Origin: Mycoplasmoides pneumoniae FH
GTDB taxonomy: Bacteria; Bacillota_I; Bacilli_A; Mycoplasmatales; Mycoplasmoidaceae
Assembly (NCBI RefSeq): GCF_001272835.1
Contig: NZ_CP010546.1
Span: 392,809-424,808, forward strand
Direction: 5' to 3'
DNA length: 32,000 nt
Translations under genes and position numbers: made by a program
Shown here: positions 5,078 to 20,550 of the stretch, piece by piece
Layout of the letters: each line of letters begins with the position of its first letter
Numbering within the stretch: the first letter of the stretch is position 1
Notes under the pieces: generated by a model
The model's input: the letters and a program-made list of their open reading frames with translations, nothing else
Database searches by the model: none
Told to the model about the DNA's origin: nothing

Positions 5078-6958
5078 GTGCTGTCCAGGTCCATGGTAAA
5101 AAAGGAACTAGAAATTTACAACCTCTATACTTTTCAAATAGACCTCGATAAAAAGCTTTTATTTGAAAAAGCAGATAATCAACAGAATTACTCTAAGATT
5201 AGAGCTCGTTATTTTAAAAATTCTGCACGTAATCAACAAGCAGTTTTTCTCAATAAAAACCTGATTAAAAACACTTTTAATAAGGCACTGTTAAACTTCT
5301 CGGATTTTTTGAGTGGTAGTGGTGTAGAGAGCATTTTTAAGCAGGTCATTGATGATCAACCTGAAGTTTTAAACTACCTCAAACAGGTCAAAAAGGAAGA
5401 TAGTTGCGATGGTCACAGCGAAGCGTCACAGTTAGTATTTAATGTAGTCATTAACCCTAAAAATACGCTCGCTAACTTCTTTGAGGAATTAACCATTTAC
5501 CTCCACTTTAATGAAGAGAACAGCACAGTTGTCGGAAGCTTTTCGTTAAAGTGAAACATTAAGCGTGCCGACCTGTTTTCAGAAACGAAAAATATTGCCA
5601 TTAACAATCTGATTCACACCTTCTGTAAAAACAACTTAAACGAGGTTAGCTTTATCCAGATCATTAAATGCTTTGCTAAAACACTGATTAATAAGCAAGG
5701 ACAAATTGTGTTGGAGAGTTGTGCCTTTAAGCAAAAATGACAAAACATCGTGGAGCAAAAGTACCCTTTTTCCACGATTCACAAAAACTTAAAGATTGTC
5801 AATTCTGATTTCTTTGATGCTTTTTTTGTGATCTTGTTGTTAATTTGTCACCTCAATAATAACTTGTTGTGGTTGTGTGAAAAAACTGAGCACTTTGAAT
5901 GAAAGCTCAACAGCAAGATTAGTAATTTCAAAGAAGATAACACTGAAGTGTACTTGTCGAAAATGCTGTTGTTTTTAAAGGACTGGTACTTTGAAAACCA
6001 AGCCGTTACTAATGAAGACATTGAAAAGGTTGATGAAGTGGAAGACATTGGTAAGTTAGTGGAAAAATACAGCGCTAATCAACCACAAAAGTTGTCTTCT
6101 AATTCAACCGTTTATGTATTTGAACCAGACAAAAAACAGTGCTTTTTAAAGAATGATGACTTTTTCAACACTAACGAAGCTAAGCTGTTGTTTTTAATCA
6201 CAATGCAACCCAATGTTTTTGGTCTGGATGATACTGCCATTGCCAATGACTTAAACCTAAGGGAAATTGGTGACTTCTTTAAGGAAATTGACTTTACTGA
6301 CAGCGATGTGCTCAATGACTTTCAACAACAAAAAGAAACTTTGTTAGTACGGCGTACCTTTAACCAACTGTTGTTTATGAACAGTAATACCGATGTTTTG
6401 AGTATTGTTAACAATAAGTTCAAATCAGCGATCCATAACATTGTCTGAACGATTACTTACAGTAAGGCAATTATGCTCAAGGCATTTGATTACTCCAAGA
6501 TCTTTGAGCAAAACCGCACTAACGATCCTTCTCTCTTGCGTTCTAACCTCAACAGCATTAACCGGCTGCGGTATCTCAGTGAATACTTCCGTACCGCTTC
6601 AGTTAAGTATGACCAGCTGTACACCAAGGTAAAGGAGTACATGCAATTAGATCAGTTCTTAGTAGACATGATTAACCAGGTCAACCATGAAGATGAGATC
6701 TTTGGTAAATACAAGGAACGGGTTTATTTGAGTTTGGGAATAGTTACTGCTGTTGTCTTTGGTATTATTGAGTTCTTTAACTGTGTTTGAACGGTTTTAA
6801 CAGTCAGTCAACAAACGGCTGAAAAAAGTTTAGCTGATCCAAGAAACACGGTAATTATTGGTATTGGTACTATCCTTGTTTTAACACTGTTAATTACCAT
6901 TTTAACCTTTATGACAAGACGGCTTTACCTGTTTGAATTTAACAAGAAGCATAAATAA
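5078..6958 (+). CDS. Conserved hypothetical protein with a large soluble N-terminal region and a C-terminal 2-TM hairpin (about 626 aa; MG241/MPN337-like from memory)
   Basis: I translated a single frame by hand from 5078 to TAA 6956-6958, reading through TGA at 5552, 5738, 5900, 6446 and 6788. It joins track ORFs 5078, 5948 and 6473. The start is GTG 5078 or ATG 5093. The C-terminus is GIVTAVVFGIIEFFNCVW...VIIGIGTILVLTLLITILTF followed by a basic tail. Confidence 0.75.
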
Positions 6959-6960
6959 AG

Positions 6961-8859
6961 ATGGAATTCAATAAGTTACAACTCAGTCACTGTATTTCCT
7001 TTTACATTTCAGACGTTTCGGAAGTGTTCTTTGAAAGTATTAACCAACACCCTAGTCGTGATTTTGTCAACAACATCCTGCAAAAGATTAAGAGCACTCT
7101 CAGTGAAGAGGAATTGGAAAAGCTCAACACCATTGAGGAAGTTACTAAGGATGAGAAAATTTTGATCATGCTCAACCATGTGTTGAAGAAGATTGTTTCT
7201 AAAACGGGTAGTTCTAGCTGTGACTTATTTCAAATAGTGAAACACGACCGCTTTAACGAGCCGGTTTACATCCAAAGTGTCAATGCCTTTGAAAACAATT
7301 TGATTAACAATGAATTTGCGGAAAGGCGGTATGACTATTTAATTGAAATTAATAAACACTCTTATTTAAGGAAGTATGTCAATGCCATTCGCATCTCCTT
7401 CTTTTTAGATTTAAGGGCGCAAATCTTGTCCGGTTCCTTTACTTTGGATGTGATTAACAAACAGTTGGAACACCAAAATAAGGAAGAGTTGTTCCAAGCG
7501 ATTTACTTACGCTCCTTAATTAAGCATTTTATCTCGAACCAACCTTACCCGATTTCCTTAAATTCGTTTATTTTTGGTGATAAAAACCGTGAAAACAAGA
7601 CGGTTGAAAACGACAAGCTTAGTGTGCTTAAAAACAATTGGAATCAAATCTTCTTTTCTAAGTACTTTGATTTTGTTGCCAAAAACAAAGAAGAGCGTGT
7701 TGTCGATAACAACTGCGATGAGCTGTTTTACGCCACCATGAACACGCTCTTGATTATGTTGATCATTATTGAAGAGCTCCGGGTATACTTCAACAGTAAA
7801 GAGCCAGCCTTAATCTTAAAGCTACTAGATAACAAGGTTTCACTGCGCGAAGACCCCGACCAAAATCCAGAAACTGATTTGCATGAGTTAATTAAGTTTG
7901 CTGAAAAGAATTACCTCGAAAAGGAAAAAACAAGTCGCTGACACAAAAAACGCGTCAAAAGCTTAGAAGAGTTACTAGAAGAAATTAAACAAATTAATTT
8001 AGAGACTAAAAACGAATCGTTAGCATACCCCGATGAAATTGTGGAATTAGAGTTAGATAACGTTCACAACTTTGTCTCTACTAAACAGGTTTTTCGTCAC
8101 CAGTTAGACTTACAAACTTTACATGGTATAGTCATCAACCCTGAGCGCTATGGTATTGGCATGTGGAGTAACCACTTTGTCGATTGGGAGGAGTTTAAAG
8201 ATTTAATTGAACAGATTACTGATGCTGAAAATGGTAGTGATCTCTATGGTTTTGAAAAGGACTTGGATGAGAGCATTTGCCAAGTTAACAAGAAGTACTT
8301 AACCTTTATTAGTAGTGACAGTAGCTCTTTCTTAATTATTAAGAATGACCAAACTAAGGTTATCTCTAATTATGTCTGGGCGCAACTGTACTTTGAAACG
8401 CGCCGGTGGATTATTAATGATATTGAATACGATCTGTATGAAAAGGGGTTTGACAAGAGCCACTTTGCTAGTAACATTGCCCTTTTAGAGAGCTTGAATT
8501 TTAACTGACTCGATCCCTTTTACGGATTGACCTCAATCAAGGAGATCATGCAAAAGATTGACAGTAAGAGTAATTTAAAAACATCGATTGCCGAAATGGT
8601 CGCTAAGTTTAAACACGAACAGCGCATCTCCAAAAAGGACAATGAGCGGGTGTTGATGATCTTTGCTTATGTAGCCGCTGCGGTAGTTGGTTTTATTAAC
8701 TTTTTTTCGATGGTGTTTACCATTCTTACAGTCAGTGATCTCAATGCTGGTCTCACCCCCGCTAACATTGTTGTTATTGCAATTGCGAGCTTATTGGCCT
8801 TATTTTTAATTGTTATTGCTGTTTTATTTCGGTTTAGGTGAAAGTACATTAAGCACTAA
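6961..8859 (+). CDS. Tandem paralog of 5078..6958, with a large N-terminal region and a C-terminal 2-TM hairpin (632 aa; MG242/MPN338-like from memory)
   Basis: One frame runs from ATG 6961 to TAA 8857-8859 through TGA at 7939, 8506 and 8839. It joins track ORFs 6961, 8041 and 8527. The C-terminus ERVLMIFAYVAAAVVGFINFFSMVFTILTVS aligns with ERVYLSLGIVTAVVFGIIEFFNCVWTVLTVS of the upstream gene. Confidence 0.75.
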
Positions 8860-9533
8860 TGCAGGTTAAAGTAATTGATGAAAACAGCAATACAACCGCT
8901 GTCCTTAACTGCGCTAAAGCGAAAACGCGAGCGCTAGCTTGGTTGTGTGATACAGTACTGTTAGCGATCTTACTCGCAATTATTTACGGCATTAGTAGCA
9001 TTTTCATCAAAGAACAGTCCAGTGTGTTTTTAATTATGACGGTAAGTCAAGCAGTCTTGTGGTTGACTTACTTTGTCATTTTACCGGGTTTATGGAAGGG
9101 CAAAACGCTCTTTCGTGCTTTACTGGGTTTAAGTTTACTCATCTTTAAAAAACGCTTTTGAAACCTCTTAGTGCACGAGCTTTTTCTGTGAGTATGGTAC
9201 TCAGTTATCTTTCTAGCACTAGCAATTTACTTTTTTGTCAACAGGGATGATCCGAAGATACTGCAAGCTTTTTTTGATAACCAAAACAGCAATCTTAGCT
9301 GGATATTTGTCAAAATCTTGCTAAGTGTTATTAGTGTCTTACAACTAGTATTTGTGGTGTATTTCTGTTTCAGCTCCCAAAAGCAAGCGTTGCAAGATTT
9401 GTTATCTAAGAGTTTTATGGTGCAAAAAACAATTAAAGTAAAGGATTGTAAAAGTGAATTGAAGTCCACTAACACTATAAAAACGCACTCTGATTTACCC
9501 GGCGACATTGATTTAGAACAATTAGGTGATTAA
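8859..9533 (+). CDS. Small polytopic membrane protein, possibly RDD family (224 aa)
   Basis: ATG 8859 overlaps the upstream TAA by 1 nt. The frame is continuous through TGA 9159 and 9189 and joins track ORFs 8859 and 9318. The N-terminus RALAWLCDTVLLAILL resembles the R...D start of RDD domains. This family call is weak. Confidence 0.6.
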
Positions 9534-9536
9534 GTT

Positions 9537-11126
9537 ATGGAACATTTAAATCAGGAACAGAAAGCTGCTGTTACTTGTGATAACGGTGTTAACGTGGTGT
9601 ATTCCGGTGCTGGCACGGGTAAAACAACCGTTATTGCTGAACGCTTTGCTTACTTAGTCAATGAAAAAGGCGTTAATCCTCAAAGTATTTTGGCCTTTAC
9701 CTTCACTGATAAGGCAGCGAGTGAAATGCGCCAACGCATTATTAAGTTAATTCCACAAAAAAGCTTGCAGGATCTGCACATCTATACCTTTCACAGTTTT
9801 GCCAACAGGTTTTTGCAAAAACATGGCAAAAGTGACTTTGCCATCTTGAGAGATTCTAACCGCTTCTTTAGTGATTATGAAATGGGTGATCAACTACAAA
9901 CAGTGGTGGAAATTTATAAAAACAAAGTAGTTGATTTAGAACTTGACAACCTAGAGTATAACTCCGCTTTTAGAGATGCTTGTACAGATACTTTTAACGA
10001 GGATTTTAGTACCATCTCCAATGGTCAGTTTCGTAAACGGGCTGCGACTGCTTTACGGGCTTACCAGAACTATTTAATTACCAATAACCTATTTGATTTT
10101 AGCGATTTAATTATTGAAACTTGCCACCTTTTAAAAGGTAATAGTGAATTGTTGCAAGCATTTACCGAAAGTGTGCATTATATCTTAGTAGATGAATTTC
10201 AAGACACTAACCTAGCCCAGTACGAATTGGTAAAGTTACTAGCTACAACTCATCCTAATCTCTTTTTGGTGGGTGATAGCAACCAGATGATTTACGGTTG
10301 GCGGGGTGCTGTTGTAGAGATCTTTGAACTTTTAAAAAATGATTTTCAAACAGTCAAAGAGTTTTATACCACCCAAAACTACCGCAGCAGCCAAGCGGTG
10401 TTAGCAGTAGCGAATGATGTACTAACCGCAATTGCTAGAAAAGAGAGGAAAGCGCTCGTGTTGTTGCACTCTAGCATTGATTCTAAAGCTGTACCGGTAC
10501 ACTATAAGGCCAATTCTTTGAAAAACCAAGACCAGTGGATTATTTACCAAATGAAACAGTTGCATTTAAACAATGGTGTACCTTATGATCAGATGGCGGT
10601 GTTATTTCGTAAGAATAAACACCTTGACGCTTTTAGTCAAACAGTGCTGGAAGATGGTGATTTACCTTTAGCTAAATTAAACCTTTTAACAATTCACGCT
10701 GCCAAGGGTTTGGAATTTGAGGCAGTATTTGTTTATGGCTTGGTTGAACGCGCTTTTCCTAGTTTGCACTGGGATGGAAGTGATAAGCACAAGTTACTAG
10801 AAGAAATGAAACTGTTTTACGTAGCGATTACTCGTGCTAAACAGTTTTTATTTTTAGTTTCTGTTAGTGTGGAAAGTTTCAATGCGTATTATGAGCCGTC
10901 ACGCTTTTTAAAACTAATTGAAAAGGAACATTTGCAAACACAAAAGGCAGCGTACTTTAAAGAACAATTAAAGACACAGCCAAAACCAGTTAATTTGTAT
11001 ACAGAGACAGAAAACGCGGAAAACTTACAAAAAGCCACTGACTCTAAAAAGTGAATTATTTTAGGGGCGATTCTTTTGATAATTGTGATTATTACCGCTG
11101 TGTTAAAACTTTTTGTTGAAAATTAA
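9537..11126 (+). CDS. UvrD/PcrA-like SF1 helicase, short form without a 2B domain, with a C-terminal hydrophobic tail (529 aa)
   Basis: Motifs [49 protein letters not shown] and YVAITRAK. After TGA 11052 the frame continues as WIILGAILLIIVIITAVLKLFVEN to TAA 11124-11126. Confidence 0.85.
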
Positions 11127-11188
11127 CATTTTATCCCTTTTTTATAACAGATTACACTAATTAAAAAAACAATCTTAAACCTAGTACT

Positions 11189-13336
11189 ATGGCATTTAAC
11201 ATTAGCACTCAACTCAATAAGGAACAACGAGCCGCTGTTACCTGTGGTAAGGGTGTCAACATTGTCTATTCTGGTGCTGGTACTGGTAAGACCACCATTA
11301 TTTCCCAACGCTTTGCTTATTTATTTAACCAAAAGCGAATTAATCCTAGCAACATTTTGGCGTTAACCTATACAAGGAAAGCGGCGAGTGAGATGAAGCA
11401 GCGGATTTTGGAGCTGTTACCGGAAAAGTATCATAAGGATGTCAACATTTACACCTTCCACAGCTTTTGTAGCCGTTTTTTACGTGAAGAAGGGCAAAAA
11501 AACTTTGTGATTGATGATGACTTAAGTAACTTTCTAAAAGACTTTCTCAAAGAGAGTGAACTAAAAAGTCAAAAGGTATTACAAATTATTGACGGTTTTA
11601 AAAACGCTTACTTTGATTTTGATACCAACAGCTTAAAGGATGATGAAAGATTGGTCGAGTTGTGTGAGTTTCATTTAGACCCCCAAGAGCGTAACTTTCA
11701 ACTTTTCAAAGAAACCGCTATTGCTGCTTTTGTTGAATATGAAAAAGGTAAACAACAGAACAATAAAATTGACTTTGCTGATTTATTAATTAAAACTTGC
11801 ACTTTACTGAGCAAAGATCACAAATTATTGCGCAAGTGATCGAAAAAATTTCAGTACATTTTAGGTGATGAGTTTCAAGATACCAACCAAATTCAGTATG
11901 AACTAATTAAGATGTTGGCCAGCCATCACCAAAACCTTTTTTTAGTGGGTGACAATAACCAGATGATTTACCGCTGAAGGGGCGCGGTTAGTGACATTAT
12001 TGATTCTTTAAAAAGTGATTTTAAGGTAAGACCCGAAAACGAGTTTTACATTACCCAAAACTACCGTTGTGATCAGAACATCTTAACGGTGGCAAACTCG
12101 ATTCTAGGCACCATTTATGCCAAAGAAAACCAACCTGATTCAACTAAAGGCTTTCTTTTTTCTGCCATTAAATCAAACCGGCTTCCAGTTTATTTCCAAG
12201 CCTCTTCAGTTGAAGGCCAACATTCTTGAATTATCAATAAGATTAAGAATTTACATAAAAACCATGGCATTCAATACAAAGACATGGCTATTTTGTTTCG
12301 CACCAACAGAAACATGGATTCGATGACTGAAGCGCTTGAAGCTGATGGCAGTATTCCCCTTAAGCAAAATAAGGGTTTTTTTAAACAGTTAGAGACTTTT
12401 AAAAAGGTATTAGTGGCACTCATAACTAGGTCAAACTATGACATTAAACTAGCTTTAAAAAGTTTGCGGGTTTGACCTAATGTTTTAAATAAAAGTCTCA
12501 CTGTAAACGAGCAAGTGAATTTAGATAAAATCTTGCAAAACTTAGAGCAAGCCATTTTTTTAGATGAGCATACTCGGGGTGAGTTGACGGAAGCTGCTAA
12601 AGTTTTTACGCGTTTAATTAAGTTTGTTGAAGAACAACAGTTTGAAGCTTTATTAGCCTTTACTTTTGAGGCATTAAATACTGATCAGTTTGTCTGCAAC
12701 TTTATTTTTAGAACATTGCAAAAACTGCAAACTGAAAATAAAAACTTCACCATTACCGATTTTATTAACGAGTTAAGGTTCCAACAAGATGAGTTAAAGC
12801 AGTCCAAAGATAATGTGATTAATTTAATTACAGTGCACTCTGCTAAGGGCTTGGAATTTGAAGCTGTCTTTATTTATGGGATCAATCAAGACAACTTTCC
12901 GCTCAAATCGAAGAATCAAATAATAGATCTACAAAGAGAATTGGATGAACTACGCCTTTTTTATGTGGCCTTGACAAGGGCAAAGAAATACTTGTTTTTA
13001 CTTTCAGTTTATCAAATGAGTGGTGAAATTATTTACCCCTCTAAATTCATTCGTTTTATCAATAAAGAGGATAGACTAGAAATTGCCACCATTAACCATA
13101 AAGTTCACCAGGATGATGAATTCTTCGATTCTTCTAAAACAGAAGACTATCAAAAAAAGTATTTAACAGAAAATACGGATTTTGTTAATGGTGACTCTGT
13201 TAGCCACCGTACTTATGGTAAGGGCGTTGTTGTTGAAGTTAGAGAAGATGCAGTCTGTGTCGCTTTTAAAAACAGTAAGTACGGACAGAGGTGAATTGTT
13301 AAAAATCACCGTGATTTGGTGAAGGCTGTGTATTAG
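11189..13336 (+). CDS. pcrA: PcrA/UvrD-type ATP-dependent DNA helicase (715 aa)
   Basis: One frame joins track ORFs 11189, 12284 and 12515 through TGA at 11837, 11975, 12228, 12473 and 13292. Motifs [30 protein letters not shown] (W = TGA), [19 protein letters not shown] and YVALTRAK. The C-terminus is a PcrA-like [17 protein letters not shown]. The stop is TAG 13334-13336. Confidence 0.9.
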
Positions 13337-13476
13337 TTATGATCTGCTATTAAAAAAGAAATTGTAATAATAAAAATGAACAAGTTTTTACCAATTTAAT
13401 AACTAAAATTAAAATCCTTATTAATTGTTAGTAATAACAACTTTCAACATAACTAAATAACTAAACTCACTATATC

Positions 13477-15108
13477 ATGGAAAAGAAACGTACTGAACAA
13501 CGTAATGGCGTTGAAAAGAAGATTTGAGAAATAGCTGATAAATTAAGGGGAACCATTGATGGATGGGACTTTAAAAGCTATGTTTTAATTGGTCTTTTTT
13601 ACCGTTTTCTTTCCGAAAACCTATGCAAATATTTTAACGATTCTGAAAGAAGGAATAATCCTGATTTTAGTTACGAAAATTTAACAGATGATTATGAAGC
13701 AATTGATGCATTAAAAGATGCTGCCATTGCAAGTAAAGGCTTTTTTATTAAGCCATCTCAGCTTTTTCAAAATGTTGTTAAAAGTATTCGTGAAAATAAA
13801 AATAACGAAGATCTAAATACAACTTTGCGCGATATCTTCGATGATATTGAAAAGTCTACTGAACTAGGTGATGGAAGAAGTAAAGAATCCTTTAAAGGTC
13901 TTTTCAAAGACTTTAATGTTTCTGAGGTTAAGTTAGGTTCTACTTTAACGATCCGAACAGAGAAATTAAAAGAACTTTTAACAAGCATTGACACAATGGA
14001 GCTCGATGAATTTGAGAAAAATTCTATCGATGCATTTGGTGATGCATATGAGTTTTTAATTTCCATGTATGCACAAAATGCTGGAAAAAGTGGGGGTGAG
14101 TTTTTTACACCCCAAGATGTATCTGAACTTCTCGCTAGAATTGCGATTGGCAAAAAGGACACCGTTGATGATGTTTATGACATGGCTTGTGGCAGTGGTT
14201 CTTTACTTTTACAAGTAATTAAAGTTTTAGGTAAAGAAAAAACTTCACTGGTTAGCTATTACGGTCAGGAAATAAACCACACAACTTACAACCTTTGTCG
14301 GATGAATATGATTCTCCACAATATTGATTACGCTAATTTCAATATTATTAACGCTGATACTTTAACAACGAAGGAGTGGGAGAAGCATTACGTAAATTGC
14401 TCAAATGAAAATGGGTTTGAAGTTGTGGTTTCCAATCCACCATATTCCATTAGTTGAGCTGGTGATAAAAAATCCAATTTAGTAAGTGACGTTCGTTTTA
14501 AAGATGCAGGGACATTGGCACCTAATTCAAAAGCTGATTTAGCTTTTGTTTTACATGCTCTATATGTATTAGGTCAAGAAGGTACAGCAGCAATTGTTTG
14601 TTTCCCTGGAATCTTGTACCGTGAAGGTAAAGAGCAAACCATTAGAAAATACCTAGTTGATCAAAACTTTGTTGATGCAGTGATCCAATTACCAAGTAAT
14701 CTTTTTAGCACAACATCAATCGCTACTTCAATTCTTGTTCTCAAGAAAAATCGTGATAAAAAAGATCCCATTTTCTTCATTGATGGTTCTAACGAATTTG
14801 TTAGAGAAAAGAAGAATAACCGCTTAAGTCCAAAAAATATTGAAAAGATTGTTGATTGCTTTAATAGCAAAAAAGAAGAAGCTAATTTTGCAAAGGCGGT
14901 TGAAAGGGACAAAATTAGGGAATCTAACTACGACCTTACAGTAGGTAAATACGTAAACTCAGAGGCTGAAAAGGAAGAATTAGATATTAAGGTTTTGAAT
15001 CACTCTATTGATGAAATAGTAGATAAACAAAAAGATCTAAGAACTAAAATTAAGGATATTATTCAGGATATCAAAGTAGATTTTGACAACATTGATATTA
15101 ATAACTAG
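13477..15108 (+). CDS. hsdM: Type I restriction-modification system methyltransferase subunit HsdM (543 aa)
   Basis: ATG 13477. The N-terminus IWEIADKLRGTIDGWDFKSYVLIGLFYRFLSENL is typical of HsdM. The AdoMet motif is DMACGSGSLL and the catalytic NPPY lies at 14434-14445. TGA codons fall at 13525 and 14455. The stop is TAG 15106-15108. Confidence 0.95.
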
Positions 15109-15177
15109 TTGATAATAAAGCAATTCTTTGTTAATTTACAAGAATTTAAAAACTAATAAATTAATTTCATTATTGTT

Positions 15178-16299
15178 GTGCAAATTAAAACTTACAAAAT
15201 CAAGGATATTTGCGAGATCTCAAGAGGCAAAGCAATTACTAAAAAATACATTAAGGATAATCCTGGTCAATATCCGGTTTATTCATCTACTACTGCTAAT
15301 AACGGTGAAATTGGCAGAATAAAGGATTACGATCTTGATGGCGAATACGTTACCTGAACTACAGATGGTATATATGCAGGTACTGTTTTTTATCGTAACG
15401 AAAAGTTTAATGCTTCTCAGCACTGCGGTGTTTTAAAACTTAAAAATAACGAAATAAGTGCTAAGTTTTTAACTTATGCATTAGGAATGGAGGCTCCTAA
15501 ATTTGTTAATAATGCTTGTCCTATTCCTAACCTCAATTTATCAAGAACTGAGGAAATTGAATTAGATTTCCCACCCTTGCAAATTCAGCAGAAAATTGCT
15601 ACTATCTTAGATACTTTTACCGAGCTAAGCGCCGAGCTAAGAGAGCGAAAGAAGCAGTATGCCTTCTATCGCGATTATCTGCTCAACCAAGAAAATATCC
15701 GAAAAATTTACGGAGCAAATATACCTTTCGAAACTTTTCAAGTAAAGGATATTTGTGAAATTAGAAGAGGTCGAGCGATAACTAAAGCGTATATTAGGAA
15801 TAATCCTGGAGAAAATCCAGTTTATTCCGCAGCTACCACAAATGATGGTGAGTTAGGACGTATTAAAGATTGCGATTTTGATGGTGAATACATCACTTGA
15901 ACTACAAATGGTTATGCTGGAGTAGTTTTTTATCGTAATGGCAAGTTTAATGCATCACAAGATTGCGGTGTTTTAAAGGTTAAAAATAAAAAAATCTGCA
16001 CCAAATTCCTATCCTTTTTATTAAAGATAGAAGCACCAAAATTCGTTCATAATCTAGCTTCAAGACCAAAACTAAGCCAAAAAGTAATGGCTGAAATTGA
16101 ACTCTCTTTTCCACCTCTAGAAATTCAAGAAAAGATTGCTGATATTCTCTTTGCCTTTGAAAAACTTTGCAATGATTTAGTAGAAGGTATTCCTGCCGAA
16201 ATTGAATTGCGTAAAAAGCAATTGGATTACTATCAGAATTTCTTATTTAATTGAGTGCAAGAACAAAAGAAGAACTCACTTTCTACTAATCTAAATTAA
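15178..16299 (+). CDS. hsdS: Type I R-M specificity subunit HsdS, Type IC-like, made of two homologous halves (373 aa)
   Basis: The start is GTG 15178, the first start codon after TAA 15157. The frame passes through TGA at 15355, 15898 and 16252 to TAA 16297-16299. Each half has a target-recognition domain (KDICEI.RG.AITK...GEY.TWTT) followed by a conserved helix (FPPLQIQQKIATILDTFTEL / FPPLEIQEKIADILFAFEKL and RKKQYAFYRDYLL / RKKQLDYYQNFLF). Confidence 0.9.
15622..15645 (+). repeat. Imperfect 12-nt tandem (gagctaagcgcc / gagctaagagag) in the central conserved helix of hsdS
   Basis: Read directly from the sequence. It encodes ELSA-ELRE within TELSAELRERKKQY, at the position of the TAEL-type repeats of Type IC HsdS proteins. 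Confidence 0.6.
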
Positions 16300-16318
16300 A
16301 GGTTATTTCTTAACCTTT
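16298..16318 (+). terminator. Weak hairpin immediately after the hsdS stop codon
   Basis: aaaggtta (16298-16305) pairs with taaccttt (16311-16318) around the loop tttct. The stem is AT-rich and has no clean U-run, so support is low. Confidence 0.25.
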
Positions 16319-16507
16319 GAGAGTTTCTTTAATTAAAAAAGAAATTTCTTAATTTTGTTGACATTTCTAATTAAGCCGTTCAATTTATTTAGTGTAAAGA
16401 GCGCATATGCATTACACATATAAATTGAAAATCGGGCACTTGTTAAATTTAGCTCAATTCTTATACAAAATTGAACGTTTTAGTTATTTTTTAGATTCTC
16501 CAAAGAA

Positions 16508-16513
16508 AGGAGG
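16508..16513 (+). promoter_or_regulatory. Canonical Shine-Dalgarno AGGAGG, 8 nt upstream of ATG 16522
   Basis: aaaggagggattttttATG, read directly. Most other genes in the window lack an obvious SD and are translationally coupled by overlaps instead. Confidence 0.6.
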
Positions 16514-16521
16514 GATTTTTT

Positions 16522-17172
16522 ATGCCTAAAATTATTTCTAAACGAGAATTCAACATTCTTAGAAAAACAAAAGAAGAAATCTTTTCTCAAATTGTTTACA
16601 CTAAGAAGAGAAACGGTCTGCACAAGGCTGCCAAAGAATATTACTTCAAGGACAAAGACTTTACAATAATAGAAGATCAACAGGATCGACCTGATAAACC
16701 TGAGGAACTGGACACACCGGATATTCCAAAGCCACCAAAACCTCCCAAGGGTCCTGATCAACCCGAGGAACCAGGCCAACCAGGTGGTCCCGATGATCCT
16801 AATTCAGGAAATAAAAAGATGCCAAAGCCAGACGAATTTGTAACCCACAGACAACTTCAAGAATTTAAGAAGGATCTTTTAGTGGAACTTCACGAAATCT
16901 TTCCTACAAAACCTGAATTAAAACGGGTTGAAGAAAAAGTTGATGTTCTGTTTGAACTTCAAAAAGCTCAGGGTGAACAAATAAGAATCCAAGGTGAACA
17001 AATCAAAGAACTGAAAGTGGAGCAAAAAGCCCAGGGCGAAACCCTACAGCTAATCTTGCAAACACTACAAAAGATGAACGATCGTCTGGATAAGATCGAA
17101 GGTAAAATGGACAAAATGGAAAGTAGAATGGATAAAATGGAAACTCGCTTAGACAAACTAGAGTCCAAATAA
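16522..17172 (+). CDS. DUF16-family coiled-coil protein (216 aa; MPN344-like from memory)
   Basis: Uninterrupted ORF with no TGA codons. It has a basic N-terminus, a Pro-rich segment (16687-16800, [39 protein letters not shown]), then heptad coiled coil ending [28 protein letters not shown]. Confidence 0.8.
17086..17169 (+). repeat. Four tandem 21-nt (heptad) units at the 3' end of the DUF16 gene
   Basis: ctggataagatcgaaggtaaa / atggacaaaatggaaagtaga / atggataaaatggaaactcgc / ttagacaaactagagtccaaa, read directly. Confidence 0.7.
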
Positions 17173-17211
17173 ATCTAATTGAAATAAGAATAACAGCAGT
17201 TAATTTTTAGG

Positions 17212-17226
17212 TTAGCACGTTGCTAA
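17212..17226 (+). terminator. Candidate small hairpin plus T-rich tail downstream of the DUF16 gene
   Basis: ttagca-cgt-tgctaa followed by tttatt. The stem is only 6 bp and the loop is tight, so support is low. Confidence 0.25.
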
Positions 17227-17354
17227 TTTATTCATAAAAGAAGAACTATTATTAGTTATTTATTCAGCTTCTTCAGTGGTCTTTAAAGAAATATTAGTAT
17301 TTAATAAAAAAATTTATTGTTGTTAAAGTTTAAACTCTAGTATTTCTTATTTAT

Positions 17355-17392
17355 CATTAAGTTATTTAATTAACATTAAGTTATTTAATTAA
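17355..17392 (+). repeat. Perfect 19-bp tandem duplication (cattaagttatttaattaa x2), 22 nt upstream of the hsdR ATG
   Basis: Copy 1 spans 17355-17373 and copy 2 spans 17374-17392. They are identical base for base and are followed by the partial echo cttatttaacttaat. Confidence 0.9.
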
Positions 17393-17413
17393 CTTATTTA
17401 ACTTAATCTTCAC

Positions 17414-20400
17414 ATGGAAAAACTGGATTTTTTAAAGATAAAAAAAGATTGAACTGTACCAGTTGAATATCAACCTAGTGATCAAAAAATAGAGTGACAA
17501 TCTTCAAGAAAAATAGTTCAAAATTTAAAAAACAAACTTTTATCCTTGGGTTATGAAGATATTAGCAAGGGTTTTGACGAAATTCCTAAATTCTTAGAGA
17601 AAAATTTAAGAAATCAACTTAGCTTATTAAACGATTTTCAATTTTCCGATAGAGAGTGATCAGATTTTTTAAATAACTTTATTTTTCAATTAGGTGACGG
17701 CAAAAAAGGAAGAATTGAAAAAATCCAAAAAGGTGAGCTTTATGAACTAAAAGATGAAAATGACAGAATCATTAAAAATGTTCGTTTAGTAAATAAAAGA
17801 GAACTATCTAAAAATAAATTGCAATTTATTTGCCAAGATGAAAGGAATGAGGTTATTATATTCATCAATGGCCTTCCTTTTGTTTTAATAAGTATCTTTG
17901 AATTTAATTCACCACTTCAATCAAGCTTTCAAGCATGAAAAATTATTAATTCCCTAATAGATGACGAAAAATTTAAAAAGTTTTCCGATTACTTGCACCT
18001 TTTTGTTTGAACAAACGCAAAGGAAACAAGATACTGCTCAATAACAACATGGGATAACCTTAAAGAAAAAAGGAAATCAGTAAGAGGATTGTCAAACTCT
18101 TCTTTTAAAAGTTTGATGAGATGAAGTGACTCTGAAAACAATAAAATCGACTATATTGAAGACTTTGCAACTCATTTTTTAAACAAAAACGCCTTATTAA
18201 ACGTTATTTGTAAATTTTGTGTGTTCAGGTCAAATAGTGATCTTTGAGTTATGCGTCCTTACCAAATATGCGCAACTGAAAGAATTTTAGAAAAAATAAA
18301 AGAAGACAATAGGAACAGTAAAAACTCTAAAAATGCAAGTAAGGGCGGCTGTATTTGACACTCAACCGGAAGTGGTAAAACACTAACTTCTTTTAAAGCT
18401 GTTCAATTGGCTAGTGAAATAGACTTTGTTGATAAAGTCCTTTTCGTTGTTGACAGGAAAGACTTGGACAACCAAACGATCGAAGAATATGAAAAGTTTC
18501 AAGCGGGTTCTGTTAGCGAAACTGAGAACACAAATGATCTTAAAGAAAAGATATTAGACGATAGTACCGCCACACGTGCAATTGTTACTACTATTCATAA
18601 ACTTAAGAGGTTAATAGATCAGAGAAGTAAGCTTAAAGACGAAGATCTTAAAAAGAAAAACATCGTTCTTATATTCGATGAATGTCATCGATCTCAATTT
18701 GGAAAAATGAAACAAGAAATCGATGAGTTTTTTTAAAATGGGATTTTATTTGGCTTTACTGGAACGCCTATTTTTGAAAGTGAATATTCAGACAAGAATC
18801 AAACTCTAGAGAACCAGCAAAAGACAACTAGAAGTAAATTTGGTGAAATTATTCATACCTATACAATGTCTGATGCTTTGGATGACGAAAATGTACTTTG
18901 TTTTAGGTATAAGAGTTATTACATTAAAGATGATGGAAGCCGAATTGATACATTAAATGAAGAGAGAATTAAGCATATTGTTGATTTCACTTTAGATAAA
19001 TATCTAGATGCAACACAAAATACTCCGAAATTTGATAATTTTGAAAATCCTGTAAAAGAAGGGTTTAATTCGATTTTTGCCTGTGAGAGTAAAGAAGCAG
19101 CAATCGAATACTATAAAGAATTCAAAAAACAAATTGAACAAAAGAAGCTACCAATTAAAATTGCAAGCATTATAGCGCAAACGAAGGTAGTGATGAACAA
19201 GAAATTAGTGTAAAAGGTCTTGATAAATCCTCAAAGAGTTTTCTAAGTCAAATCATTTCTGATTACAACGAAACCTTTCAAACAAACTTTAGCATTAACA
19301 ATCTAGATGAATATTACAAAAATGTTTCTGATAGATTAAAGCCAAAAAAGACAAAAAATTTAGATGGTGAAAATAAAAACACAAATGGCTGAGAAATCGA
19401 CATTTTAATTGTTGTTAACATGTTCTTAACTGGTTTTGATGCACCAACCCTTAATACACTTTGAGTAGATAAGAATTTAAGCGAACACACTTTAATCCAA
19501 GCTTTTTCAAGAACTAATAGATGTTTTGGAGAAACTAAAAAATTCGGAAACATTTTTAGCTTTAGAGATATAAGAGAAAACTTCGATCAAGCTCTAAAAA
19601 TGTACGCAGACAAGCGTGGTCTTAAGGATATAAGATCCAACATGGTTATGCGAGAATTTGAGGAAGTTTTTGAAAAATTCAAAGATTGAACCGAGAAAAT
19701 AAAACAAAAATACCCAAATCCAGATGAAATTCTTAATTTAGAAAAAGAAGAAAAGTGAGATTTTTCTGATCTTTTTGGTGAATTTCTTGGAGATTACAGA
19801 ACTGTAAAAAGCTATCATGAATTCGACAAAGACAACCCTTATCTTCCAAGTGATGAATTCAATAAATATTTTGCTGCGTTTTCTCAAATTCAAGAAGAAA
19901 TAAGGAAAGAAAAGGCAGAGAAAAAAGCGCTAGAAGTACAAGAAGAAGATTTATCAAATGAAGTACGAAAAGAACCGCAAATCTTTTCTTGAGAATATGG
20001 TGAGGGTATTCAAGCCAATTTAGATTACATTTTTCATCTAATTAAGGATCTCTATAATTGTGATAATGAGCAAGATAGACAAAAAGTATTAGACAAAATT
20101 AAGACTGCAATTAGAACAAATCCAGAGATTCAAGTGAATGAAGATATTCTTAATGAATTTATAGAGGACTTAGGGAAGTCGTTCGAGAAAGAAAAACTTG
20201 AAGAAGTTTGAAAAACAGAAGGTAAATTACGTGAGTGTTTAAAGGATTTCTGTAAAAAGAAGGAAGAAAGCAATAAGAAAAAAATTATTAATGACTTTTT
20301 AGTTAAAGGAGTTTTCCTTGTTGAATGAGTAGCTGATAAACAACTAAATACAGCTAAAAAGAAAGGTGAATACAGTCCTTCTTGATCTGATACAGAAAAA

Positions 20401-20550
20401 TTAATTTGAAAAGAAAAATCAACCAATCTTCCAACTATGACAGAAAAAGATGAAGATGGCAATTTCAAGTGAAGAAAATTAATTACAGATATCTCGGAAG
20501 CTTTTAAAAATCACTTCGAAAGATTTATCCGCTTTGTTGAAATTAGATAG
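17414..20550 (+). pseudogene. hsdR: Type I R-M restriction subunit HsdR, disrupted by an in-frame TAA and a 1-nt frameshift (intact length would be about 1045 aa)
   Basis: Fragment 1 (17414..18736) has MRPYQ, HSTGSGKTLT and FDECHRSQ, then EFF-TAA. The same frame continues as NGILFGFTGTPIF (helicase motif III) to TAA 19211-19213. The next frame is open from 19159 and carries ANEGSDEQ...DYNETFQTNFS...[29 protein letters not shown]...QAFSRTNR through to TAG 20548-20550. I translated all three segments by hand and found only TGA (Trp) codons inside them. Confidence 0.9.

Follow-up and report, generated by a model that had tools for sequence, protein, structure and literature searches.

The helicases PcrA, UvrD and Rep are textbook soluble enzymes. 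Canonical PcrA has four subdomains (1A, 1B, 2A and 2B) and ends in a Tudor domain, which docks RNA polymerase and UvrB. Work on an engineered Escherichia coli Rep, discussed in Estevao et al. 2013 (PMC3720892), indicates that the motor functions without 2B. The same paper describes a natural short form in Mycoplasmoides pneumoniae, MPN340 (PcrA-short). Its gene has 1,590 bp, contains one TGA and adjoins the gene for full-length PcrA, MPN341. According to the main text, MPN340 lacks 2B, is expressed, has an ATPase that is stimulated by ssDNA, and unwinds short duplexes in an ATP-dependent manner with a preference for 3' tails. DNA binding is weak in gel shifts, the gene is non-essential, and the authors suggested that the activity is constitutive. 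MPN340 thus shares with PcrA, UvrD and Rep (PDB 1pjr, 2is6 and 1uaa) motifs Q to VI, the 1A/1B/2A fold, the preference for 3' tails and the stimulation by ssDNA; it differs by the absence of 2B and Tudor, by its weak DNA binding and by a hydrophobic tail.

We analysed this locus in a window of 32,000 nucleotides from strain FH (contig NZ_CP010546.1). The helicase pair consists of:

9537..11126, + strand: short PcrA paralogue MPN340, an SF1A helicase of 529 aa without 2B and Tudor, with a C-terminal hydrophobic helix
11189..13336, + strand: full-length PcrA MPN341, 715 aa, with 2B at about 12368-12817 and Tudor at about 13190-13333
10596..10691, + strand: junction of the 2B deletion, where motif IVa (residue 354) is followed by motif V (residue 385) after 31 residues

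Under translation table 4, MPN340 comprises 529 aa, and its sole TGA, at position 11052, is W506, as had been read from the sequence before. Both paralogs are assigned to the UvrD family by Pfam (MPN340 scores 288 bits for UvrD-helicase and 106 bits for UvrD_C), while the Tudor profile PF21196, in a Pfam search of both, matches only MPN341. The earlier note had called the N-termini near-identical and had put the stretch that replaces 2B at about 30 residues in MPN340 and about 190 in MPN341. The N-termini are indeed alike (27 of the 34 quoted positions match), with only 46% (178/388) and 51% (43/85) identity in the two blocks in which the paralogs align. Residues 394-543 of MPN341 have no counterpart in MPN340, the alignment jumping from 393 to 544. 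The distance from motif IVa to motif V is 31 residues in MPN340 and 181 in MPN341, and that from motif IV to motif V is 104 and 257, respectively; the median of the latter is 274 and its minimum 230 in the 103 of 119 first-round homologs, among the matches listed, that have both motifs. All 11 SF1A motifs checked (Q, I, Ia-Ic, II, III, IV, IVa, V and VI) are present in MPN340.

The structural comparison gives the same picture. MPN340 matches PcrA (1pjr) in two parts, chain 10-377 and 559-649, and the gap between them (378-558) is 2B. The predicted model, built on 117 sequences, has a mean pLDDT of 86 (a fold from the single sequence alone is poor, with a pLDDT of 40). It contains two predicted RecA-like domains with the 1B insertion, and the junction is predicted to be well folded, with a helix (360-373) followed by a strand (382-385) at a pLDDT of about 96. 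The best Foldseek matches of the model are PcrA, UvrD and Rep (E 2.9e-36 for 1pjr). Alignment, comparison with 1pjr and motif spacing agree on the loss of 2B, which had already been published in 2013 (PMC3720892). The observation in the sequence is confirmed.

2B loss recurs in separate clades and is thus not unique to MPN340. Among the matches listed, a set enriched by the queries, 2B is absent from 31 of 304 other homologs having both motifs, and these form at least three clades separate from that of MPN340. The groups (P0232; P0168/P0173/P0179; P0263) have a motif IV to V spacing of 100-145 residues, similar to MPN340. A Tudor-like motif is kept in 18 of the 31 listed homologs, and a hydrophobic segment occurs in none of them (maximum 1.42). 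Two further proteins, P0203 and P0230, turned out to be false rows and were dropped from the 2B-less set, although both are still in the tree of 2B-less clades; second matches in three family genomes (G057, G063 and G069) are longer helicases and not 2B-less short copies.

Natural 2B-less proteins of the UvrD/PcrA type occur in metagenomes (P0168, P0173, P0175, P0179, P0216, P0232, P0263, P0273, P0285, P0291 and P0307-P0361), in several independent clades and many with a Tudor-like end; cluster P0361 has 306 members. P0224 (1,276 aa) carries two tandem UvrD-like motors, both apparently without 2B. The Atlas contains short UvrD clusters of 451-539 aa, known by length only, and a search of plasmids for similar helicases returned distant helicases only. 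Tandem PcrA-like genes without Tudor motifs were also seen elsewhere, at least four within 15 kb at locus L038 (genome G010) and several at locus L035 (G017).

MPN340 had been portrayed in the earlier note as constitutively open. Taken as higher activity, this is not borne out by the published rates: relative rates are 49% and 100% for the short alleles and 46% and 88% for full-length PcrAs (PMC3720892). The short form needed about 4x less protein than MPN341 but resembled the M. genitalium enzyme (PMC3720892). In rate, MPN340 is therefore not clearly ahead of the full-length PcrA of mycoplasmas, which sets it apart from the engineered Rep.

The C-terminus of MPN340 is more unusual. Two features follow the motor:

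10968..11045, + strand: linker joining the motor to the tail, of low model confidence and probably disordered (about residues 478-503)
11046..11123, + strand: predicted single tail-anchor helix, with K504, K505 and W506 (TGA), a core at 507-525 and a four-residue end

In the model, pLDDT is below 50 at linker residues 488-493 and 495-502, and one disordered region of 35 residues is listed for MPN340 in PMC12323609. A final helix is predicted at 504-528. The 19 residues 507-525 have a mean hydropathy of 3.03 on the Kyte-Doolittle scale, a value attained by 22 of the 679 called ORFs of the genome; the next-best segment of MPN340 reaches 1.34, and the maximum in MPN341 is 1.01. Residues 507-523 are seventeen uncharged residues without an amphipathic pattern. 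The protein's only hydrophobic helix is thus the one at its very C-terminus, as is characteristic of tail-anchored proteins, and the tail is found where PcrA carries its Tudor domain. A single C-terminal segment of this kind is present in only 8 of 679 ORFs. One of these is the kinase PrkC, a cytoplasmic enzyme with a single C-terminal hydrophobic helix, which was recognized by its sequence in the supplement of PMC7737663. PrkC has there the same TMHMM/SignalP class as MPN340, "membrane", while MPN341 is classed "cytoplasm"; these are automatic labels.

All 15 alleles listed, out of 25 cluster members and together on about 995 contigs, carry the same tail, which says little about selection because the strains are nearly clonal. 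Fourteen of these alleles are full length, and one is an N-terminal fragment. The MPN340 sequence printed in the supplement of PMC7737663 differs from that of the window at three residues. Contigs from RNA runs span the tail without indels, although such contigs cannot show transcription. An A-run before the sole TGA opens a -1 frame of 38 codons that bypasses the tail (window 11045-11161); slippage there would, hypothetically, yield a soluble MPN340.

The tail seems to have been overlooked. The words membrane, hydrophobic, transmembrane, C-terminal and anchor are absent from the main text of PMC3720892, and the only earlier trace is the class "membrane" that was assigned automatically in a table published afterwards (PMC7737663). 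No report of an anchor in MPN340 or of membrane-anchored UvrD-type helicases was found, subscription journals and UniProt features aside; fractionation or imaging of MPN340 was likewise not found in the literature.

Several published proteomic datasets bear on the location of MPN340. In SEC-MS (PMC4332154; rows from parts 1 and 10 of the 19 parts of Table S6), the protein was seen only in the first fraction (1,543 kDa) in both runs and never near 60 kDa. This signal is weak because it rests on 1 and 2 peptides. In part 10, proteins confined to the first fraction were 4 of 29 in run A (MPN338, MPN339, MPN340 and MPN358) and 1 of 29 in run B, which is MPN340 itself. All four from run A have hydrophobic segments (MPN358 was matched by gene order). 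In this dataset, most soluble enzymes have their peak close to the mass of the enzyme itself, yet the apparently soluble MPN016 was also confined to the first fraction in one run, and aggregates would give the same picture as a membrane protein. Upon FtsH depletion, the level of MPN340 goes up by 0.50 log2 (adjusted p 4e-7) and that of its mRNA goes down; this is under the two-fold cut-off of the authors and about half of the rise of PrkC (0.98 log2) (PMC7737663). A double depletion did not repeat the rise (-0.13, not significant). Lon depletion had no effect on MPN340, whereas MPN341 is a candidate Lon substrate (PMC7737663). When extracts prepared with Triton were run on nucleic-acid columns, MPN340 came off at unusual salt (PMC6721554). 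The peptides mapped in PMC7990945 lie within residues 14-91 only, and the cleavage sites among the entries listed there are at residues 14 and 68, with none before the tail.

In a soluble MPN340, the helix might instead pack against the motor, a partner or further copies of the protein, or serve as a degron. Such a reading would account for the MBP fusions, which contained the tail and were purified soluble (PMC3720892), for the FtsH effect that was not reproduced, for the GO plasma-membrane column, which is 0 for MPN340 (PMC12323609), and for the void elution, which may reflect an oligomer or an aggregate. It fits poorly with an uncharged, non-amphipathic segment that follows a disordered linker, and a cytoplasmic degron is at odds with a half-life of 13.7 h and the lack of a Lon effect (PMC7737663). 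We consider it quite improbable. The tail anchor proposed in the earlier note thus has good support from the sequence and weak support from proteomics. Insertion of the tail into the membrane, with the motor on the cytoplasmic side as predicted from the two lysines just before the tail, is in our judgement quite likely. MPN340 is a known enzyme with a tail that is probably membrane-anchored, and that it is both active and anchored is likely.

A donor of the tail elsewhere in the genome was searched by tblastn, blastp and blastn, with no significant match. One candidate lies in the neighboring gene:

11045..11125, + strand: possible, no more than suggestive, vestige of Tudor-coding DNA, matching 38/81 bases of MPN341 13169-13249 at a one-base shift of frame

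Measured from the last helicase helix, the tail begins after 52 codons and the Tudor motif of the two full-length proteins after 51. Read in +1, the Tudor DNA of MPN341 gives an open frame of 61 codons (window 13182-13367) that is hydrophobic (2.58, against 3.03 for the tail). Open +1 frames with a value of 2.2 or more occur at only 2 of the 679 ORF ends and in 2 of the 44 Tudors of the family. Of 1.63 million positions in the genome, 460 equal the 38/81-base match. When the matches to the two full-length genes are added up, the tail site comes first among 1,652 positions in MPN340. Eight tests found the same register, the tail ranking 2nd to 28th of 292 transmembrane segments, in a comparison whose register was picked after being seen. 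Other tests are less favorable. Pfam found no Tudor in the shifted frame, and family matrices ranked the tail 32nd to 51st against transmembrane controls. Depending on the scoring scheme, 0, 4, 28 or 99 of 291 controls were as good in local alignment, in which the Tudor DNA of the M. genitalium-type genome (G107) aligns with the tail in a different register. In a frameshift-aware protein test, 18, 141 and 142 of 291 controls were as good. With statistics this mixed, a tail derived from former Tudor DNA through a shift of frame is close to an even call, leaning slightly against.

The gene pair appears to be old. In a tree of 17 rows with the 2B columns removed, MPN340 is sister to MPN341 plus the PcrA of G107 (support 99/98), and alternative placements are rejected (p-AU 0.019 and 0.012), although long branches may bias the placement. 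According to this topology, the pcrA duplication predates the split separating M. pneumoniae from M. genitalium, with the copy lost in the latter. In G107, the upstream gene for an RDD-family protein ends 5 bases before pcrA, and the short copy is cleanly gone. In a family of 135 genomes, 133 were matched, and the only full-length match among those listed is in the genome of the window; 55 helicase ORFs were extracted from the family loci. Among the matches listed, the short copy with its tail was seen only here. A hydrophobic segment of 2.2 or more occurs in 0 of 408 other homologs among the matches listed and in 0 of the 55 locus helicases (each homolog search scored about 8,000 candidates and listed the best 120-150).

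The tail might insert and still be an unselected by-product, e.g., of a frameshift, with MPN340 being a dispensable spare, the location of which is irrelevant. The gene is dispensable, with 864 transposon insertions (PMC4332154), it was lost in G107, its tail was found in no second species among the matches listed from the 135 family genomes or among the 408 homologs, and the shifted frame of the Tudor DNA is hydrophobic already. A mere spare would hardly have retained all motifs at a divergence as deep as 46% identity, nor would it be expected to be full length in 14 of 15 listed alleles or about 10x more abundant than MPN341 (28.2 vs 2.7 copies per cell; PMC12323609); also, the hydropathy of the tail exceeds that of the shifted frame of its sister. 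We regard this explanation as unlikely.

The gene upstream of the helicases is conserved in position:

8859..9533, + strand: RDD-family membrane protein MPN339, with four hydrophobic segments and a C-terminal LPG motif (9495-9503); conserved upstream neighbor of pcrA

An RDD gene is directly upstream of pcrA at 41 of 43 Tudor-bearing family loci and, in two other families, in all four genomes (one with a gap of 375 bases), that is, at 45 of 47 loci of relatives from three mycoplasma families (loci L002-L060). In 35 of the 41 members of the family, the cytoplasmic tail of the RDD protein carries the LPG motif. A literature search turned up no paper on the RDD-pcrA pair. MPN339 is a fitness/essential gene while MPN340 and MPN341 are not (PMC4332154), so that the main job of MPN339 cannot be only to hold PcrA; the gene order possibly results from operon inertia. 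A scan for promoters and terminators remained at chance level. It is tempting to speculate that a one-base frameshift turned Tudor into a transmembrane anchor and created a membrane-integral SF1A helicase beside the RDD protein, which would point to a hitherto unrecognized part played by PcrA in membrane-side DNA processing in mycoplasmas; we consider this doubtful. Further upstream (window 5078-6958 and 6961-8859), two adjacent genes, also present in G107, code for proteins of 626 and 632 aa without a Pfam match and with two C-terminal hydrophobic segments each, a layout which we take to resemble CorA-type transporters.

A type I restriction-modification cluster with a lower-GC look follows pcrA (window 13477-20550). 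Its restriction subunit is split into three ORFs (17414-18736, 18866-19213 and 19420-20550), and the cluster is missing at this place in G107. The earlier note had suggested uptake, segregation or defence as roles for MPN340. A helicase acting with this cluster in membrane defence or DNA entry, similar to Gabija, would be consistent with the gene order and its absence in G107, and with GajB, likewise a compact UvrD-like helicase, the profiles of which match MPN340. The same profiles match MPN341 equally, however, the tree groups MPN340 with housekeeping PcrA, and the restriction gene is in pieces. In sequence, GajB itself gives a weak match (123 residues, E about 1e-13). GajB retains 2B and has a GajA partner (PMC10781630), and MPN340 has neither, being flanked by the RDD and PcrA genes and not by a nuclease; an assignment as GajB was thus rejected. 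The proposed roles find no support here, also because MPN340 is non-essential, and involvement in defence or DNA entry is very remote.

For the membrane-anchored helicase, the following scenario may be drawn. After an old tandem duplication, one pcrA copy retained the complete ATP-driven 1A/1B/2A motor, shed 2B and Tudor, and acquired a C-terminal helix, probably transmembrane, at the end of a flexible linker; most likely, this places the motor on the inner membrane face. Without 2B, which provides duplex grip and regulation, and without Tudor, MPN340 would be cut off from the repair partners of MPN341. It would act as an unregulated ssDNA translocase that clears membrane-located DNA of short hybrids or of proteins such as RecA. 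Canonical repair would fall to MPN341, which is scarce and probably degraded by Lon. This role (isolation from repair partners, unregulated stripping at the membrane and canonical repair left to MPN341) is a guess, with the odds somewhat against it.

Half of the finding on MPN340, the loss of 2B, is published; the anchor is an unreported and testable variant. If true, it would place DNA unwinding at the membrane in a much-studied minimal cell, and the biochemistry of 2013 would have been done with a membrane protein in the absence of a membrane. A frameshift origin, if true, would be a clean case of a new location arising from the re-reading of an old domain. With several clades that lack 2B in nature, there is material for asking what purpose 2B serves.
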